NCBI GenBank assembly: GCA_024226255.1
Contig: JAAELU010000187.1
Location: 1 to 59,769 of the forward strand
Direction of reading: 5' to 3'
From: a bacterium
Lineage (GTDB): Bacteria > Actinomycetota > Acidimicrobiia > Spongiisociales > UBA5794
DNA: 59,769 bases
Part shown: piece after piece, positions 3,836-10,196 of the stretch
Layout of the letters: every line of letters begins with the position of its first letter
Position numbering within the stretch: the first letter of the stretch is position 1
Notes under the pieces: generated by a model
The model's input: only the letters and a program-made list of their open reading frames with translations
Databases searched by the model: none
What the model was told of the DNA's origin: nothing
Position numbers and translations under genes: made by a program

Positions 3836-4435
3836 CTATTCGCCCGAGAGTCCGTCCACCGGCCTGGGGGTCAAACCAGCGAGAAACGCGCGAGTACGGG
3901 CGAGAATCTGCTCGGCGTATACGGGTTGATAGTCCGCGGATGTCACATCGGCAATCAAGTGCCCCGGTCCCGGATAGAGGAACAACTCCCCGGGAGCATC
4001 GGCTGCGAGTTGGCGAGCCGCCTCGAGATCTTCCACGACCAGCTCATCATCTTCCCCAAGGTGGATCTGCAGACCTACCCCGGACGGCCATCCGTGTGCG
4101 AAGACATCGATCGGGATCGCTGAATGGCACAGCACGGCTGCCAACACATTGGCGTTGGTCTGGGCGAGCTTCTGTGCCGGCAGCACACCAAGGGAAAACC
4201 CGACCACCGCGAAGTGACCTGGGATATCGGCGGCGTAAGCGACGCCACGTTCGATCAGCGTATCGAAACCAATTGCCTCCGCGTGGCGGACACCATCGGC
4301 AACCGAGTGGAACCGGGCGCCTCCGTAGAGATCCGGTGTCGTGACGTGATGGCCTGAGGCGCTCAGCTCATCGGCAAACGCAACCACACCATCGGTGAGT
4401 CCGAGAGCATGGTGGAACAGCAGGACATCAATCAT
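3836..4435 (-). CDS. Dienelactone hydrolase family alpha/beta hydrolase
   Basis: LLFHHALGLT, TPDLY, nucleophile motif GFSLG, FLYPGPGHL. Confidence 0.85.
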   Translation of the reverse strand: MIDVLLFHHALGLTDGVVAFADELSASGHHVTTPDLYGGARFHSVADGVRHAEAIGFDTLIERGVAYAADIPGHFAVVGFSLGVLPAQKLAQTNANVLAAVLCHSAIPIDVFAHGWPSGVGLQIHLGEDDELVVEDLEAARQLAADAPGELFLYPGPGHLIADVTSADYQPVYAEQILARTRAFLAGLTPRPVDGLSGE

Positions 4436-4473
4436 GAATGTGCTTTCCACCGCTTCGGCTCCGAGCCGCTGCG

Positions 4474-4632
4474 TTAGTCATCATCCAGGCTCGCCTTGAA
4501 GGCGATTGATGACCCGGCGATGATCGAGATGACCAGCGCAATCGTGCCGCCGAGCACTATCCAGCCGAGGACCGAGACGGTCCCAACCGCAATCGTGAAT
4601 GGCGCCATTGGTGTCTGTTTTAGCCAATTCAT
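4474..4632 (-). CDS. Small single-pass membrane protein (44-52 aa), absent from the ORF track
   Basis: MNWLKQTPMAPFTIAVGTVSVLGWIVLGGTIALVISIIAGSSIAFKASLDDD*; fills the gap in a minus-strand gene run. Confidence 0.55.
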   Translation of the reverse strand: MNWLKQTPMAPFTIAVGTVSVLGWIVLGGTIALVISIIAGSSIAFKASLDDD

Positions 4633-4707
4633 CGCAGGGACCGTACCAGCCGACGCGAACGAATGCGGCGGGGAGCCTACTCACGCGCCCGTCCTATCCG
4701 AGCCGAG

Positions 4708-5082
4708 CTACATCTGTGCGGTCAACTGAATCTCGACACTTGCGCCGAGCGGCAAGGCCGCCACTCCAATAGTCGTTCGTGCCGGGTAGGGCTCGGTGAA
4801 GTGCTCGGCGTAGGCGACATTCATCTCCGAGAAGTCGCTCATGTCGGTCAAGAAGACCCCCACCGAAACCACCGCCGACCCGTCGAGCCCGGCTGCCGCG
4901 AGAACGGCGAAGAGGTTGGCGAAACACTGCCTGGTCTGGTCACCGACGCCGCTGTCGACCAGCGAGCCTGTGGCCGGATCGATCGGCGTCTGGCCGGAGC
5001 AATAGAGGACTCCCTGGCTGGCTATGGCCGGGCTGTAGGGGCCGACCGACGCCGCTCCCGGCGGCGAGATGGCTTCGCGCAC
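4708..5082 (-). CDS. Rid (RidA/YjgF) family imine deaminase
   Basis: GPYSPA, YCSGQTPIDP, F.EMN..Y..HF..PYPART.IGVAALPLGASVEI. Confidence 0.92.
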   Translation of the reverse strand: MREAISPPGAASVGPYSPAIASQGVLYCSGQTPIDPATGSLVDSGVGDQTRQCFANLFAVLAAAGLDGSAVVSVGVFLTDMSDFSEMNVAYAEHFTEPYPARTTIGVAALPLGASVEIQLTAQM

Positions 5083-5143
5083 GACTCTTCTCCTTTGTGG
5101 TTATGTCGCCCGAAGCTAGCCGGTCGGCAGGTTGCCATCAGGG

Positions 5144-5443
5144 TCAGTCGATCTCGAGGTGGAGGGCAACCTTCACTGTGTCGCCCGGCCCGATCTTCTC
5201 CTTAGTGCGTACTGCCTTCTTGACCGGAAGGAGGTAGGCGCCCAGTTCCTTGCTCGGGAAGAGGGAGGTCGGCCACTCGGTCGTTCCAATCTTGGCCATT
5301 ACCCGCACCGATCCGAAGCCAGGACGCCGCGGAACCAGCTCGAGGATCTCGTCGGATTCAGCGGAGGGAACAGCTACGAAGACCCAAGGATCTTGGGCCG
5401 CGGCGAGGAACAGCTCACCGCTGAAGCGATAGCTCTCACTCAC
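5144..5443 (-). CDS. DUF1905 domain protein
   Basis: WVFVAVP, GFGSVRV.A.IG.TEW.TSLFP, YLLPVKKAVR. Confidence 0.85.
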   Translation of the reverse strand: MSESYRFSGELFLAAAQDPWVFVAVPSAESDEILELVPRRPGFGSVRVMAKIGTTEWPTSLFPSKELGAYLLPVKKAVRTKEKIGPGDTVKVALHLEID

Positions 5444-5450
5444 CTGAATC

Positions 5451-6071
5451 TCAGTCCCACAGAGTGGGGTGGAGCGTCACGGACTGGGCAACAGGCTGCT
5501 CCCCGGGCTCAGGAGGTCCGACGAGGCGTTCGAGTAGTGCCGCCCAATCAAATGCCTCGTTCACTTCCGACGCCTGCACGGTGACGATTCGGTCAGCACG
5601 CACGTAGTTCGGAAGCATGTCGTCGAGAATCGCTTCGATTTCGTCCCGGAATTCGTCATTGACGCTGCGAACTCCGTCAACCTTGAGCGGGACATCGGGA
5701 AGGAGTCGCACGTACAGGTCGTATGTATTCGCCCAATTCTGGATGAGCGGGGTCACGTTGAAGGGGTCCACTCCCCCGGTCGACCGCAGGAAGTACGCGA
5801 AGTTGTCGACGACGGCGCGATCGGTGACGAGTACGTCGGCACGGTTCCGCAACTCCAGTTCCTGCTGAATCTGGGCCATGATCACCCAGAGCTGAGCTTC
5901 CGGGGTGGAGCCTTCGTTGAGCCCGAGCGGGTTGAACCTAATAACCTCTCGTCCAACCTCCACGCTGCGGCCGCTACGCCCAACGGCGCCGGCGAAAGAG
6001 TGGACCGCATTGGTCTTGCGGACTGAGTGCGACCCGATGAAGGCGATTTTGAGAGATGTCGGCGAACTCAT
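5451..6071 (-). CDS. AAA_28/NadR-like P-loop nucleotide kinase with degenerate Walker A
   Basis: KIAFIGSHSVRKT, EV.R..P, VTDRAVVDNFAY, DGVRS; start moved to ATG 6071 to avoid overlap with the PfkB gene. Confidence 0.7.
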   Translation of the reverse strand: MSSPTSLKIAFIGSHSVRKTNAVHSFAGAVGRSGRSVEVGREVIRFNPLGLNEGSTPEAQLWVIMAQIQQELELRNRADVLVTDRAVVDNFAYFLRSTGGVDPFNVTPLIQNWANTYDLYVRLLPDVPLKVDGVRSVNDEFRDEIEAILDDMLPNYVRADRIVTVQASEVNEAFDWAALLERLVGPPEPGEQPVAQSVTLHPTLWD

Positions 6072-6132
6072 CGCTGCTTTCGTTTCTGCGTCGGGTCGCA
6101 CGCTACTGGCCCAGCTGCCCGGTTCGATCTCA

Positions 6133-7065
6133 TCAGCGGTCCAGAAGAGAATCGACTTGGGCGCTCGTGGGCGTCGCCCGGGCCCCAGGCTGGGCCACCG
6201 ACAGTGCCGCCACCGCATTGCCCCGAGCCAGAGCGCCGGCCAGATCGTTTCCGGCCAAGCGCGCTGCAATGAAGCCGGCGTTAAACGCATCTCCGGCGCC
6301 GACAGTGTCCACCACATCGACGGGGTAGCTCGGCGCAGAGGCCACTCCGTCCGTCGAGCACGCCATGGAGCCGTCGGCTCCAAGTCGCGCTATGACGATT
6401 CGATCGTTGCCGGCAATCGACAGGGCAGCTTCTACCGGGTCGGTCTGTTCGGTCAGCGGGACGATTTCATCGGCGGCAGCTCCAAAGACAATGTCGGACC
6501 GTTCGACCGCGGCGTCAACGACCTGACGGAATTCGTCCTCCCAGCCCCAATTCTCCAAGCGCAGATTGAGATCGAAAGAGACGGTGGTTCCGGCTGCATT
6601 GGCCTGCTCCATCGCTTCCAAGATCGCCTGGCGCGCCGGATCTACCCGCAGACACAGCCCCGAGACATGGAGCCAGTCGGCATCTGTCGAGCCAGCGAGG
6701 GCTTGCTCGGCCGATAGAAGCGCATGGGCGCCCCCCGAGGGTGGCCAGACGTAGATAAGCCGGTCGCCGTCGGCAGGGACCACCACGATCACCATCACCG
6801 TCGGGCTGCCCTGGACCGTCGCCAGGCAACTCGTGTCGACCCCAGCGCTTGCCAAGCTGGCAACCGCGAATCGTCCGTAGTCATCATCCCCGACTGTGCC
6901 CACGAACCGGCACCGCTCACCCAGGCGCGCCAAGGCCGCCGCGGTGTTGGCGGCCGATCCGCCGCCGAACAGACGAGGCTCCGGATTGGCATGCGTCGGC
7001 TTGGAGTCATGCGGGAGACGGATCTCCATGTCGACGTTCACGTCGCCGATCACGACGACGCTCAA
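6133..7065 (-). CDS. PfkB/ribokinase family carbohydrate kinase
   Basis: GGSAANTAAALARLG, VGTVGDDDYG, SFDLNLR, DTVGAGDAFNAG. Confidence 0.92.
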   Translation of the reverse strand: MSVVVIGDVNVDMEIRLPHDSKPTHANPEPRLFGGGSAANTAAALARLGERCRFVGTVGDDDYGRFAVASLASAGVDTSCLATVQGSPTVMVIVVVPADGDRLIYVWPPSGGAHALLSAEQALAGSTDADWLHVSGLCLRVDPARQAILEAMEQANAAGTTVSFDLNLRLENWGWEDEFRQVVDAAVERSDIVFGAAADEIVPLTEQTDPVEAALSIAGNDRIVIARLGADGSMACSTDGVASAPSYPVDVVDTVGAGDAFNAGFIAARLAGNDLAGALARGNAVAALSVAQPGARATPTSAQVDSLLDR

Positions 7066-7745
7066 GCCGAGACCTCGTTCCGGGCCGCACCCGCGAAGGC
7101 TGCCACCTTCTCGAGGTCCTTACGGAATCCGCCGTCCGCCGTGGAACGGTTGGTATGGGTCAAGGAATCGACCGCCCAGGGCTTGACTGCGGCGATCGCG
7201 TCGGCAACGTTTTCTGGCGATAGGCCGCCAGCCAGAACGACCGGGATGTCCACAGCGTTGACGATGGCGGCGCTGATCTCCCAGTCGTGGGTGGTTCCTG
7301 CCGCTCCGATGCCGTCGATGGCGGGATCCACGGAGTCGAGGATCAGGTACTCGGCGACTGCAGCGTATGTCACTGCTGCTTCGATTGCCTCTGGACCGGT
7401 CACTGCCACTGCCTGCATGATTGGGAGGCCGGGAAGTTGGCGACGCAACTTGGCGACGGCTTCTGCGTCCATGGCCCCGGGAGGCCCGCACAGATGAAGA
7501 ATGTCGGGCCTGACGGTTGCCACCATTTGCTCGATGAGCATCAGTTCGACTTCAACACTCAACGCGACACTCACGGCCTTGCCCTTGACCGCGTCACAGA
7601 TTGCGCTTGCCGTGGCCAGGTCGATCTCGCCGGGTAGGCCACGGTCGGATGGGGTCACACCCACATGGTGAACACCTCGAGCGGCAACGGCCAGGGCCTC
7701 ATCGGGCGACTGCATGGTGTAGATCTGCACGCGGGGTTGGTTCAC
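7062..7745 (-). CDS. Phosphoribosylanthranilate isomerase (TrpF)-like TIM-barrel protein
   Basis: LILDS, GAAGTTHDW, LAGGLSPENVADAI..VKPWAVDS, KDLEKV..F; N-terminal VQIYT replaces VKICG. Confidence 0.8.
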   Translation of the reverse strand: MNQPRVQIYTMQSPDEALAVAARGVHHVGVTPSDRGLPGEIDLATASAICDAVKGKAVSVALSVEVELMLIEQMVATVRPDILHLCGPPGAMDAEAVAKLRRQLPGLPIMQAVAVTGPEAIEAAVTYAAVAEYLILDSVDPAIDGIGAAGTTHDWEISAAIVNAVDIPVVLAGGLSPENVADAIAAVKPWAVDSLTHTNRSTADGGFRKDLEKVAAFAGAARNEVSA

Positions 7746-7914
7746 GAGCGCATCGTACCGCCGGGAGGATGCTGTCTAGTCCTAGGCCGAAAGGGTGCCG
7801 GCTCGACAAGCGCACCGGGGCACACGACTGCATGTTGGGGGTATTTCGTCTCTGGCCGAGGCGCAGCGTCAGGAACACACTGCGAGTTGACGACCGACTA
7901 CTGCAAAGGAACGC

Positions 7915-8760
7915 ATGTTCACGATTCTGGAGTCCCGGGACCTTGCCCCGTCGATTCGATACCTACGCGTTGCGGCTCCAAAGATCGCCCGTCGTCGTAA
8001 GGCGGGCCAGTTTGTCATTGTTCGAGTAGACGGTGACGGAGAGCGGATTCCGCTGACGATTGCGGATTCCGACTCCACCGAGGGGTGGATCGCATTGGTC
8101 GTGCAGGGCGTTGGCAAGACAACCAAGGCCATCAATCTTCTCGAAGCCGGGGATTCACTTTCGGACGTAGCGGGACCGTTGGGCATGCCCTCGCGTATCG
8201 ATGAAGTCGGTACAGCTGTCGTCATCGGTGGTGGCGTGGGTACGGCGATCGCCTACCCGACTGCGGTCGCCTTGAAGGAAGCCGGCAACCACGTCATTTC
8301 GATTATCGGTGCTCAGACCGGCGCCCAGATCGTTCTCGAGTCCGAGATGGAAGTGGCATGCGACGAGGTGTACGTCACGACTGACGACGGATCCGTCGGG
8401 TATCACGGCTTCGTCACCGGCAAGCTTTCAGAACTGATTGACGAAGGACGCCAGCTCGACCTCGTGATCGCGATTGGGCCAATACCGATGATGAAGGCAG
8501 TCGCCGAGGTGACCCGTCCCTGCGCTATCGACACGATCGTCAGCCTGAATCCGATCATGGTCGACGGAACTGGGATGTGCGGCGGCTGTCGGGTCGTCGT
8601 CGGCGATGAAACCAAGTTCGCCTGCGTCGACGGGCCGGAATTTGATGCCCATCAGGTCGACTTCGACCTTCTCGAGCGTCGCAATCGAGCCTACGCAACC
8701 TTCGAGCATCAGCGGGATTCCGATATGCAGGCGGCCATCGATCTACAGAGTGCTTCATGA
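7915..8760 (+). CDS. nfnA: NfnA/SudB-type FAD/NAD-binding [2Fe-2S] subunit
   Basis: GQFVIVRV..GERIPLTIAD, GPLG, GGGVG, SLNPIMVDGTGMCGGCRV..FACVDGPEF (Asp-Cys3 cluster ligation). Confidence 0.85.
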   Translation: MFTILESRDLAPSIRYLRVAAPKIARRRKAGQFVIVRVDGDGERIPLTIADSDSTEGWIALVVQGVGKTTKAINLLEAGDSLSDVAGPLGMPSRIDEVGTAVVIGGGVGTAIAYPTAVALKEAGNHVISIIGAQTGAQIVLESEMEVACDEVYVTTDDGSVGYHGFVTGKLSELIDEGRQLDLVIAIGPIPMMKAVAEVTRPCAIDTIVSLNPIMVDGTGMCGGCRVVVGDETKFACVDGPEFDAHQVDFDLLERRNRAYATFEHQRDSDMQAAIDLQSAS

Positions 8761-10196
8761 ACGAACTCACCAAACGAGAACGTATGGCAATGAGCCGGTC
8801 CGAGATGCCGGCCCGCCCCGCCGACGAACGCAATTCCGATTTTGGCGAAGTGAACCTGGGCTTCACAGCGGGGCTGGCCGTGCTCGAAGCGCAACGTTGT
8901 CTCATGTGTCGGCGACCGGTGTGCATCGAAGGATGCCCCGTGGGCGTACAGATCACTGAATTCATCGACCTGGTGGCTGCCGGCGACTTCGGCGAGGCCG
9001 CCAAGGTAATCAAGCGAGACAATTCGCTGCCGGCTATCTGCGGAAGGGTGTGCCCCCAGGAGGACCAGTGCGAAGGCGCTTGCGTCCTCGCCAAAAAGGG
9101 CAAACCGATCGCGATCGGGGCTCTGGAGCGATTCGTCGCCGACTTCGAGCGCGAACACGATCTGATGCACGCGGAGCCCACAGCGATCCGGACTGGCAAG
9201 TCGGTTGCCATTGTGGGCAGTGGGCCCGCCGGTCTGGCCTGTGCAACCGACCTGGCCAAGCTGGGTCACGACGTGACGGTGTTTGAGGCGCTCCACGAAT
9301 TGGGAGGTGTTCTCTCCTACGGGATACCGGAGTTCCGGCTCCCCAAGGAAATCGTCGCTGCCGAGGTCGAGCAACTCGAGCTCCTCGGAGTGCGCTTTGT
9401 CACCAATGCAGTCATCGGCATGATGGACACCATTGACGACCTGCTCGATGAGGAGGGGTTCGATGCGGTGTTCATCGGCGTTGGAGCCGGGCTACCCCGC
9501 TTTCCCAACGTCCCCGGTGAGAACCTGATCGGCGTCTATTCGGCCAACGAATTCCTGACCCGGATCAATCTCATGAAGGCCTATCAGGTGGGCTCTGACA
9601 CCCCTATCTTCGACGTGACGGGCAAGGCGGTGGCCGTGTTCGGGGGTGGCAACACCGCAATGGACGCGATCCGCACCTCGCTCCGTTTGGGAGCATCGAC
9701 GGCAACGCTCGTGTATCGCCGGTCGCGAGAGGAGATGCCTGCGCGGCACGAGGAGGTTGAACACGCCGAAGAGGAGGGCGTCGGTTTCCAAATGTTGACC
9801 GCTCCACTCGCATTCCTTGGAGATAACGATGGTTTCCTCACGGGTATGCGCCTTCAGGCTATGCAACTCGGGGAACCCGACGAAAGCGGCCGAAGACGCC
9901 CGGTTCCCGTTCCGGGAGCCGTGACGACAAAGGACGTCGACATGGTCGTAATCGCAATCGGCAATGCTCCCAACCCGCTATTGGCGAAAACGGCTCCGGA
10001 TTTGGAACACACCCGATGGGGGACTCTCCTGGCGGACGCGACGACGGGCCGCACCTCGAAACGAGGGGTCTTTGCCGGCGGCGACATCGTTACCGGTGGA
10101 GCAACAGTGATTCTGGCAATGGGTGCTGGTCGGACAGCTGCTGCGTCCATCGACGAGTTCCTGCGAACCGACGACTGGGAGCGGAGCGTCCAGTGA
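8757..10196 (+). CDS. nfnB: NfnB/SudA-type flavin [4Fe-4S] subunit (often annotated as glutamate synthase small chain, gltA/gltD-like)
   Basis: RCLMC..P.C..GCPV, ICGRVCPQEDQCE, GSGPAG, YGIPEFRLPK, GGGNTAMD, YRRS, GGDIVTGGATVILAMGAG; ATGA overlap with nfnA. Confidence 0.85.
   Translation: MNELTKRERMAMSRSEMPARPADERNSDFGEVNLGFTAGLAVLEAQRCLMCRRPVCIEGCPVGVQITEFIDLVAAGDFGEAAKVIKRDNSLPAICGRVCPQEDQCEGACVLAKKGKPIAIGALERFVADFEREHDLMHAEPTAIRTGKSVAIVGSGPAGLACATDLAKLGHDVTVFEALHELGGVLSYGIPEFRLPKEIVAAEVEQLELLGVRFVTNAVIGMMDTIDDLLDEEGFDAVFIGVGAGLPRFPNVPGENLIGVYSANEFLTRINLMKAYQVGSDTPIFDVTGKAVAVFGGGNTAMDAIRTSLRLGASTATLVYRRSREEMPARHEEVEHAEEEGVGFQMLTAPLAFLGDNDGFLTGMRLQAMQLGEPDESGRRRPVPVPGAVTTKDVDMVVIAIGNAPNPLLAKTAPDLEHTRWGTLLADATTGRTSKRGVFAGGDIVTGGATVILAMGAGRTAAASIDEFLRTDDWERSVQ

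Follow-up and report, generated by a model that had tools for sequence, protein, structure and literature searches.

The canonical phosphoribosylanthranilate (PRA) isomerase, TrpF, catalyses an Amadori rearrangement, in which a Cys at the end of strand beta-1 serves as the general base and an Asp as the general acid. PfkB-family kinases, in turn, are paired in several systems with an enzyme acting on a ribosyl 5'-phosphate. Besides PsuK-PsuG (Escherichia coli yeiC-yeiN), these systems include the uncharacterised operons STM4065-4067 and yegTUV, both of which combine a PfkB kinase with an ADP-ribosylglycohydrolase and a nucleoside-type transporter. STM4066 is described as having aminoimidazole riboside kinase activity and as sharing an operon with the ADP-ribosylglycohydrolase-like STM4067 (PMC3161100), and yegTUV is said to have no known function (PMC10819704). 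Bacteroidetes have ribose utilisation systems (Rus) that are described as combining a constant core, a ribokinase, with a highly variable set of enzymes that liberate ribose, among them nucleoside hydrolases and ADP-ribosylglycohydrolases (bioRxiv 10.1101/574913). Here we describe a TrpF-like protein encoded next to its own PfkB kinase in contig JAAELU010000187.1 of assembly GCA_024226255.1, which derives from a member of Acidimicrobiia (Actinomycetota); the whole 59,769-nt stretch analysed is referred to below as the window. We put at roughly 0.5 the probability that these two genes form a core that handles a ribose-derived compound other than free D-ribose and is unrelated to tryptophan synthesis.

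The association of the two genes was followed in two samples. The wider one comprised the best 80 of 531 relatives found in a pattern scan of one genome per species across many phyla, with neighbours considered within 7 kb; the class sample comprised 20 loci from the genomes of the window's class that carry the gene (see below), at least seven of them on the same contigs as loci of the 80-locus set. With the window kinase as a tblastn query, PfkB was found directly downstream and co-directional in 53/80 loci, and adjacent but divergent in 6; in 9 more it closes a divergent ATP-binding cassette (ABC) transporter operon at a distance of 5.3-6.4 kb. The remaining 12 loci gave no tblastn match, and 5 of them still have PfkB according to Pfam or clustering. 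All-against-all clustering of open reading frames (ORFs) recovered a PfkB cluster in 70 of the 80 loci, and two 529-residue proteins in the public collection are fusions of PF00697 followed by PF00294. As for the class sample, PfkB was adjacent in all 15 loci with a TrpF-like protein of 49% identity or more (12 co-directional downstream, 3 divergent), and one split (frameshifted) copy of the TrpF-like gene had a weak divergent PfkB match. The linkage that the initial annotation of the window had postulated is thus conserved. That annotation had also drawn three genes downstream of the pair into the same candidate pathway, and here the outcome is different. Using the window proteins as queries, a homologue of the AAA_28 P-loop protein was detected in 3/80 loci, never adjacent to the TrpF-like gene, and a homologue of the DUF1905 protein in 2/80 (L058 and L035), located after the AAA_28 gene and about 4.8 kb from the TrpF-like gene; no homologue of the window Rid protein was present within 7 kb in any of the 80 loci. 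In other words, the conserved unit consists of the TrpF-like and PfkB genes, whereas the AAA_28, DUF1905 and Rid genes are incidental neighbours.

Judging from sequence comparisons and genomic setting, the TrpF-like protein is a paralogue and not the PRA isomerase of its genome. The genome of the window (G000) is 90.7% complete with 4.9% contamination and consists of 778 contigs; its size of 4.99 Mb, compared with 1.9-3.1 Mb for relatives in the same family, and the level of contamination indicate that the bin may hold more than one genome. It has two PF00697 matches, of which the stronger (102.7 bits) resides on contig C294, in the order trpC (indole-3-glycerol phosphate synthase, IGPS), canonical trpF (with the motifs VKVCG and LLDS), trpB and trpA. 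The TrpF-like protein of the window is 30% identical to this canonical TrpF. Since G000 has many contigs and its bin is possibly mixed, we also checked a relative, G038 (99% complete, nine contigs), and found both genes, the canonical one again beside the IGPS gene. The initial annotation had called for a search for a separate trpF and had placed the pair outside tryptophan synthesis; the trpCFBA operon on C294 answers the former, and the latter agrees with this operon and with the retention of the TrpF-like gene in relatives without an IGPS match. These are four genomes of 0.7-1.1 Mb from one genus (completeness 93, 88, 77 and 75%), and in two of the four, the two that were searched, the TrpF-like gene is the only PF00697 match. 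Also as initially noted, there are no trp genes beside the TrpF-like gene in the window, the sole other PF00697 match of the genome being on a different contig, and none was seen next to it in the annotated loci of other genomes. All 12 matching NCBIfam models for TrpF equivalogs, which have cut-offs of approximately 170-380 bits, remain below their cut-offs, the best score being 102.5 bits against 216 (PRK01222 models). It could still be argued that the protein is simply a spare, divergent PRA isomerase, a second trpF with a kinase as its coincidental neighbour, as it matches PF00697 above the gathering score and is annotated as PRA isomerase in the sources. We find this hardly credible, given that the equivalog scores are far under the cut-offs, that Tyr replaces the catalytic Cys throughout the aligned family (see below), that a canonical trpF is present as well, and that the gene is retained in the four small genomes. 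A coincidental kinase linkage is untenable because of its frequency and the existence of fusions.

The family to which the TrpF-like protein belongs is widespread. A word-index search returned 2685 proteins at E <=1e-3 among 6259 candidates, the best 120 listed after the window's own entry being 62-75% identical, and a profile search of 1.84 billion representatives returned 304 clusters (50% identity) at E <=1e-30, with canonical TrpC-TrpF fusions appearing at about 1e-40 in the same search. Members come from Actinomycetota, Chloroflexota, Pseudomonadota, Spirochaetota and one haloarchaeal plasmid. At E <=1e-20, the gene is carried by 22 of the 201 genomes sampled from the window's class. Two relatives have damaged copies (G134:C1:123572-124240 in L020/L042 and G186:C5:72370-73033 in L026/L029/L047), one with an in-frame TAG and the other split into two frames, and therefore the gene appears to be decaying in some lineages. 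Two additional fusions might be gene-call artefacts: P0178 (390 residues) joins the TrpF-like domain to the Maf nucleotide pyrophosphatase family (PF02545, 198 bits), and P0121 (569 residues) has a 340-residue N-terminal part without a Pfam match.

The AlphaFold2 model of the protein (predicted local distance difference test score, pLDDT, of 95.6) has only TrpF structures as its best Foldseek matches, with template modelling (TM) scores of 0.71-0.91, and a language-model search for look-alikes returned clusters of the 'PRAI family' only. No family member has a solved structure, the best sequence match in PDB being Thermococcus TrpF at 40.8 bits. All four motifs quoted in the initial annotation are indeed there (RVQIYT, ILHLCG, LILD and VLAGGL, containing VQIYT, HLCG, LILD and LAGGL). 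Across 58 aligned members, Q7, Y9, D137, H153-D154-W155, G173-G174-L175, D193, S194, T198 and K209 are invariant (58/58), and H84, C86, E40 and Q111 are nearly so. When aligned with the genome's own TrpF, Tyr9 falls on the canonical Cys, His84-x-Cys86 on Q-x-(H/Y), and Asp137 on the canonical Asp. Thus, the general-base Cys of K-x-C-G is absent, with Tyr9 in its place, and the general-acid Asp (L136-D137, at the end of beta-6) and the G-G phosphate loop (G173-G174-L175) are kept. The S-P-R stretch of canonical TrpF reads L-P-G-E in the window protein, its Glu40 being nearly invariant in the subclade. Among the 150 best representatives, the signature of a wider clade is Q-x-Y, H84, D137 and S-x-T-x-T, that of canonical sequences K-x-C, Q84, D137 and (V/A)-(S/T)-(V/L). 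The catalytic Cys had been initially considered either lost or moved. Tyr9 stands in its place, and Cys86, conserved only in the window's subclade, is unlikely to be a universal replacement base. A Schiff-base aldolase (KDPG- or DERA-like) was also considered, as KDPGal aldolase appeared at Foldseek rank 20-21, and was set aside because the sole invariant Lys (K209) is found in canonical TrpF as well.

The kinase has PfkB motifs (FGGGSAAN and DTVGAGDAF), but it stays far below the cut-off of every NCBIfam equivalog. Its highest scores are for iolC-N (172 bits), ribose-1-phosphate kinase (153, cut-off 330) and fructokinase (148), followed by ribokinase TIGR02152 (126.7, cut-off 299.65) and FrlD NF007321 (103.3, cut-off 247). 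The closest solved relative is 1tyy (E 1.9e-35), which we take to be the Salmonella aminoimidazole riboside kinase STM4066. To place the kinase, we used a maximum-likelihood tree of 39 kinases, with ORFs trimmed to the last 330 residues or fewer: kinases of 30 of the 80 loci, hand-picked for diversity, the window kinase, a kinase from a Halostella plasmid, another kinase of G000, and E. coli RbsK, PsuK, YegV and FruK as references. Whatever their gene arrangement, the TrpF-linked kinases fall into a single clade of 32 rows (support 98/91), which includes one non-adjacent second PfkB of locus L101 and splits into a subclade of kinases encoded directly downstream (100/99) and a subclade of divergent, ABC-operon and PsuG-linked ones (92/87). 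The sister of this clade consists of E. coli RbsK and a second kinase of locus L112; PsuK, YegV and FruK are distant, and the Halostella plasmid kinase lies outside on a long branch. The analogy with fructoselysine kinase FrlD invoked by the initial annotation is therefore not upheld: the FrlD model scores below those for iolC, ribose-1-phosphate kinase, fructokinase and ribokinase, and among the four E. coli references the kinase groups with ribokinase.

An ordinary ribokinase can nevertheless be ruled out. We take the ribose pocket of RbsK to be formed by N14, D16, K43, N46, E143 and D255 (E. coli numbering). Compared with RbsK, the linked kinases keep N14, D16, G41, G42, N46 and D255, but K43 is replaced by Ser and E143 by Asp in the window kinase, and the clade has S/T at position 43 and is variable at 143. 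Moreover, true RbsK orthologues with all six pocket residues coexist with the pair in G017 (1.1 Mb), G038 and G134, and within locus L112. Since the pocket is altered and a true ribokinase is present side by side, the linked kinase is, by these indications, a ribokinase relative with a different substrate.

The neighbourhood of the pair varies from lineage to lineage. Annotation covered 102 ORFs of 9 loci, 16 cluster representatives, 59 ORFs of 11 loci and 13 ORFs of the haloarchaeal plasmid, all picked by a crude filter on length and GC content at third codon positions; counts over the 80 loci were obtained by tblastn with representatives. An RpiR/SIS (RpiR/AlsR-like) regulator directly upstream of the TrpF-like gene is the commonest of these neighbours (14 loci), followed by a methionine-gamma-lyase-like pyridoxal phosphate (PLP) enzyme (13), a CUT1 sugar-binding protein with two permeases (11), an Indigoidine_A/PsuG-like protein (8), BtpA (6), a GlmS-isomerase-like SIS protein (4) and a uridine-phosphorylase-like PNP_UDP_1 protein (3). 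IU-type nucleoside hydrolase was counted in 2 loci, and additionally in L039 and the plasmid locus L134; ADP-ribosylglycohydrolase in 1 (L125), and additionally in L134. Taken together, a ribosyl-bond enzyme or a nucleoside-type binding protein occurs within 7 kb in 14/80 loci. In L125 (Spirochaetaceae), five co-directional genes encode a RihA-like protein, a TRZ/ATZ-type (nucleoside-deaminase-like) amidohydrolase, an ADP-ribosylglycohydrolase, the TrpF-like protein and PfkB. Two nucleoside hydrolase genes flank and precede the pair in the Actinomarina-labelled loci L039 and L115, and in L039 the pair is followed by a major facilitator superfamily (MFS) transporter. A uridine-phosphorylase-like gene comes directly after the TrpF-like gene in L112 and L098 (Nitriliruptoraceae). 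On the Halostella pelagica plasmid, the genes for a TrpF-like protein (43% identical), PfkB and nucleoside hydrolase are consecutive. Genes for an ADP-ribosylglycohydrolase, a binding protein of the PnrA/Bmp type and an ABC ATPase adjoin them, and upstream there are sugar-oxidation genes and an ABC system of the ribose type. According to the depositors' annotation, Rhizobiaceae plasmids have a binding protein, two permeases, a PLP enzyme and a carbohydrate kinase divergent from a MurR/RpiR regulator and 'phosphoribosylanthranilate isomerase'; Micromonospora shows the same arrangement plus a PsuG-like gene. The initial annotation had suggested either glycated amines or unusual nucleoside-like sugars as substrates, and these contexts point to ribosyl and nucleoside-derived compounds, a class that it had named only in second place.

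Two recurrent sets of neighbours deserve a separate mention. In the Chloroflexota loci L091, L092, L096 and L104, genes for BtpA/SgcQ-like, GlmS-isomerase-like SIS (383 residues), PfkB and PsuG/Indigoidine_A-like proteins, at about 2.2-7.0 kb in these loci, form a conserved set that is divergent from the TrpF-like gene (in L104, from RpiR and TrpF-like); to our knowledge, this four-gene set matches no known pathway. The CUT1 importer, the methionine-gamma-lyase-like enzyme and the kinase are predicted to be co-transcribed in L093-L095, L100, L110, L113, L114 and L117 (Rhizobiaceae, Microbacterium) and in L102, L105 and L111 (Micromonospora). The CUT1 binding protein is most like xylobiose/xylo-oligosaccharide binders (E 1e-45), and the lyase-like enzyme scores 380 bits on TIGR01328, below the cut-off of 550. 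This set suggests the import of a sugar-amino-acid conjugate with a gamma-leaving group.

What might the pair do? From the observed pairing, fusions, paralogy, residue pattern and contexts, we infer a substrate class, a plausible order of steps, the roles of Tyr9, His84 and Asp137, and the product. RpiB (PF02502) is present in 5/5 carrier genomes searched, and G000 additionally has RpiA, which rules out the TrpF-like protein as the sole ribose-5-phosphate isomerase. Given that a true ribokinase and RpiB coexist with it, the core must have a substrate that is related to ribose but is not ribose itself. That the 5-phosphate site and the acid Asp are kept speaks for reactions at the anomeric C1-C2 centre of a furanose 5-phosphate. 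The loss of the Cys and the change of S-P-R to L-P-G-E suggest that the substrate, and perhaps also the outcome, differs from that of PRA isomerase. Accordingly phrased as a proposal, the kinase would phosphorylate the terminal (5-) hydroxyl of a ribofuranose-type compound, either a riboside or glycosylamine with a C1 substituent or a sugar-modified pentose. The TrpF-fold enzyme would then bind the 5-phosphate through its retained G-G-L and D-S-x-T loops, Asp137 would open the furanose ring, and the C2 proton would be moved by Tyr9/His84, a rebuilt base that takes over from the canonical Cys, leading to an aldose-to-ketose (Amadori-type) rearrangement or to the release of the C1 substituent. 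The resulting pentose phosphate would enter central metabolism. The compound itself might be supplied differently in each lineage, by nucleoside hydrolases, uridine-phosphorylase-like, PsuG-like or ADP-ribosylglycohydrolase enzymes, sugar or nucleoside importers or the methionine-gamma-lyase-like enzyme.

Several points weigh against a core devoted to such a ribose-derived compound. No substrate can be deduced. Ribosyl-cleaving neighbours are missing from 66/80 loci, and the enrichment of neighbours is our own judgement, made without a formal background rate and from related genomes that are not independent. Even where hydrolases do occur they do not explain the pair, because the freed ribose could go to the coexisting ribokinase. 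None of the four distant Q-x-Y members of the class sample (35-45% identity) has a PfkB neighbour. At the genome level, PsuG-like genes show no association with the TrpF-like gene, being found in 4/22 genomes with it and in 31/179 without it, which also rules it out as a replacement or an obligate partner of PsuG. As to the active site, C86, E40 and Q111 are typical only of the window's subclade and not of the wider Q-x-Y clade, and Tyr is an unusual general base. Together with Asp137 and Asp154, the newly gained His84 and His153 could equally form a metal site with a different chemistry; ribulose-phosphate epimerase has such a site.

It is tempting to go one step further and speculate that the Q-x-Y enzymes represent a new catalytic type of the TrpF fold and that, with their kinase, they make up a third kind of pair for ribosides in which a kinase is followed by an enzyme at the anomeric carbon, next to PsuK/PsuG and the YegV/YegU type. 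The product of the kinase would be a 5'-phosphoribosyl compound. The barrel would open the ring by means of the Asp and, lacking the Cys, would hydrolyse off the C1 substituent (as an open-chain imine or carbonyl) or rearrange it. As its natural substrate one could envisage something common but overlooked that arises when RNA or cofactors are turned over: a pyrimidine nucleoside with a modification or a ribosylamine with an opened ring (of the dihydrouridine or acp3U type), or else ribose methylated on the sugar. If true, this would explain why the pair is kept beside a normal ribokinase in 1-Mb marine actinobacteria; we consider it possible but doubtful.

Other routes can be conceived for the same two genes. 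The substrate might be a free pentose other than ribose, for instance D-arabinose or a sugar-modified ribose such as 2-O-methylribose from modified nucleosides, with the TrpF-like protein acting as a plain aldose-5-/ketose-5-phosphate isomerase that feeds the pentose phosphate pathway. The kinases form a sister clade to ribokinase in which the pocket has changed, the coexisting ribokinase and RpiB imply a distinct sugar for the pair, RpiR/AlsR-like regulators are adjacent in 14/80 loci, and a constant core with a variable sugar-liberating periphery matches the description of Rus in Bacteroidetes (bioRxiv 10.1101/574913). However, no neighbour indicates a known pentose, the two annotated subsets of 102 ORFs (9 loci) and 59 ORFs (11 loci) contain no arabinan-type glycoside hydrolases, and TrpF-fold enzymes are not known as plain sugar-phosphate isomerases, so that this route appears fairly unlikely. 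Alternatively, in a version of the glycated-amine route of the initial annotation, the kinase might act on an Amadori product (ribulosamine or fructosamine), and the TrpF-like enzyme might run a reverse Amadori reaction to a glycosylamine phosphate, which would give sugar phosphate and amine; the pair would then be a deglycase like FrlD/FrlB. Such a route would suit TrpF chemistry, which is an Amadori rearrangement, and two genes would suffice for it, the products being central metabolites. The L-P-G-E stretch with its near-invariant Glu40 would suit a cationic amine, a GlmS-isomerase-like SIS protein is encoded near the pair in four Chloroflexota loci, and the Rhizobiaceae plasmids and Micromonospora have a sugar-type importer with a methionine-gamma-lyase-like enzyme that could degrade the released amino acid. 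We nonetheless regard it as unlikely, slightly more so than the free-pentose route: the kinase is not FrlD-like, the pair is not accompanied in any conserved manner by Rid or another enzyme for amines, the route does not account for the nucleoside hydrolases, phosphorylases and PsuG-like proteins encoded nearby, and canonical TrpF is generally held to work strongly in the forward direction.

A 5-kinase for ribose-1-phosphate coupled to a ribose-1,5-bisphosphate isomerase, in which the 1-phosphate is handled as TrpF handles anthranilate, seems very improbable. The haloarchaeal ATP-dependent ribose-1-phosphate kinase is the second-best NCBIfam match of the window kinase, the aldose-1-X to ketose-1-X shift is formally the same, and the uridine-phosphorylase-like genes of L112 and L098 follow the TrpF-like gene directly. 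On the other hand, no conserved basic residue makes up for the loss of Lys43 in the kinase, and the TrpF-like protein gains the acidic Glu40; neither change is suited to a bisphosphate, and hydrolase-type neighbours yield ribose instead of ribose-1-phosphate. The large subunit of RuBisCO is matched in only one of five carrier genomes searched and unmatched in the other four, which argues against a ribose-1,5-bisphosphate route to RuBisCO.

The organisation of the genes in the window is summarised in the table.

Table. Features of the window around the TrpF-like/PfkB pair (positions within the 59,769-nt stretch)
Feature	Position	Strand	Remarks
TACGAT, -10-like hexamer	7757-7752	-	read off the sequence; 6-nt spacer (gcgctc) to the GTG at 7745-7743
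TrpF-like gene, Q-x-Y type (core gene 1)	7745..7062	-	227 residues; GTG start; PF00697, E 4e-10, 40.2 bits (cut-off 22.7)
PfkB kinase (core gene 2)	7065..6133	-	310 residues; TTG start; PF00294, 193 bits
AAA_28 P-loop protein (outside the conserved module)	~6056..5451	-	201 residues; PF13521, 41 bits
DUF1905 protein (outside the conserved module)	5443..5144	-	99 residues; PF08922, 88 bits
Rid, RidA-like, Ribonuc_L-PSP (outside the conserved module)	5082..4708	-	124 residues; PF01042, 125 bits; TIGR00004 (NCBIfam), 126.5 bits (cut-off 106.25)

The structural details given by the initial annotation were reproduced. The two core genes share the four nucleotides TTGA (7065-7062), which comprise the TGA stop of the TrpF-like gene (7064-7062) and the TTG start of PfkB (7065-7063), and the three genes downstream are co-directional with them, their Pfam matches all being on the minus strand. 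The sequence TACGAT-N6-GTG, described as a leaderless-type start, reads exactly so at 7757-7743 of the minus strand. In the public gene call (P0001, 217 residues), the TrpF-like protein begins ten codons later, at Met11; we prefer the GTG start, because a start at Met11 would cost the protein Q7 and Y9, both invariant in the family. In 15/80 related loci, mostly on contigs labelled Acidimicrobiia, a TANNNT hexamer precedes the candidate start by 5-8 nt, and L054 carries a near-identical start region (cctgTACGATgcgctgGTG); other loci (Chloroflexota and others) have AGGAG-type sites instead. The TACGAT arrangement and the recurring TANNNT hexamer are compatible with a leaderless mRNA. A scan of 4400-8000 with the sigma-70 consensus gave no promoters, and a terminator scan of the same interval gave two terminator-like sites on the plus strand, a number not above that in shuffled sequences.

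As to the other genes of the window, the Walker-A-like stretch of the AAA_28 protein (GSHSVRKT) is atypical in having Arg where the second Gly is expected. This protein is about 80% identical in L035, L037, L058, L064 and L069, more conserved than the TrpF-like protein, and since DUF1905 directly follows AAA_28 again in L035 and L058, the two may form a small unit of their own. Divergent from the TrpF-like gene, at 7915-10196 on the plus strand, lies an overlapping gene pair for a PyrK-like FAD/NAD(P) [2Fe-2S] subunit (NF004862, 392 bits) and a GltD/GltA-like NADPH oxidoreductase (TIGR01316, 575 bits, above the cut-off). It looks like an NfnAB-type or sulfide-dehydrogenase-type enzyme and is syntenic only in L055/L033.

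In full-text literature, excluding subscription-only titles, we found neither the pairing of a TrpF-like protein with PfkB nor TrpF homologues of the Q-x-Y type described. PMC13055916 mentions that a trpF has been recruited close to the showdomycin cluster, a gene that may or may not be of the Q-x-Y type. The label 'phosphoribosylanthranilate isomerase' attached to the family in public sources is very probably a mis-annotation, and as such it would mislead the reconstruction of tryptophan pathways, for example by suggesting a partial trp pathway in genomes that have none. The family is widespread and is retained even in very small marine genomes. A fused or paired kinase and isomerase with a rebuilt active site would offer an entry point to an undescribed step in the metabolism of ribose, nucleosides or glycated compounds, and the Q-x-Y family may be seen as a natural example of the re-tooling of the TrpF barrel. 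The pair is directly testable in cultured, harmless carriers, namely Sinorhizobium medicae, Shinella, Ensifer and Micromonospora.

How, then, does the pair relate to known systems? With TrpF (EC 5.3.1.24; PF00697; 1nsj, 1lbm, 1dl3, 4aaj) the TrpF-like protein shares the (beta-alpha)8 fold, the acid Asp at the end of beta-6, the G-G-L phosphate loop and the K-D motif near the C-terminus. It differs in having Q-x-Y for K-x-C, H-L-C-G for Q-L-H-G, L-P-G-E for S-P-R and D-S-L-T-H-T-N for D-x-S-S-G, and its gene, partnered with a kinase, is in no trp operon among the examined loci. FrlD and the SIS deglycase FrlB likewise combine a PfkB kinase with a subsequent enzyme at the C1-C2 Amadori centre. 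Unlike in that system, the kinase here scores well under the FrlD cut-off (103 bits versus 247), GlmS-like SIS proteins accompany the pair in 4/80 loci only, and no FrlB-type SIS gene is present among the ORFs scanned in 3836-10196. The archaeal pentose bisphosphate pathway, with its ribose-1-phosphate kinase and ribose-1,5-bisphosphate isomerase, resembles the pair in joining a ribokinase-like PfkB to an aldose-1-X to ketose-1-X isomerase in nucleoside catabolism, but the kinase score (153 versus 330 bits) and the RuBisCO results set it apart; furthermore, ribose-1,5-bisphosphate isomerase has the eIF2B/MtnA fold and not the TrpF fold. The pair also resembles PsuK-PsuG, STM4065-4067 and yegTUV, in which a PfkB kinase is coupled to an enzyme for a ribosyl 5'-phosphate; PsuG-like genes are present in 8/80 of our loci and ADP-ribosylglycohydrolase genes in L125 and L134. 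Here, however, the partner is a TrpF-fold barrel and has neither the IndA/PsuG nor the ADP-ribosylglycohydrolase fold, and E. coli PsuK and YegV are far from the TrpF-linked kinases in the tree. Membership of the PsuK/PsuG system is not indicated either, with 39.5 bits for the pseudouridine kinase model PRK09850 (cut-off 540) and no PF04227 match in the 90.7% complete G000. Finally, Rus belong to other phyla, our loci have no SusC/D genes and the window kinase is not a true ribokinase; within the account of Rus in bioRxiv 10.1101/574913, no TrpF-like enzyme is named in the portions describing these systems. What the two have in common is their architecture, a variable periphery built around a constant core, which in the present case is the TrpF-like/PfkB pair.

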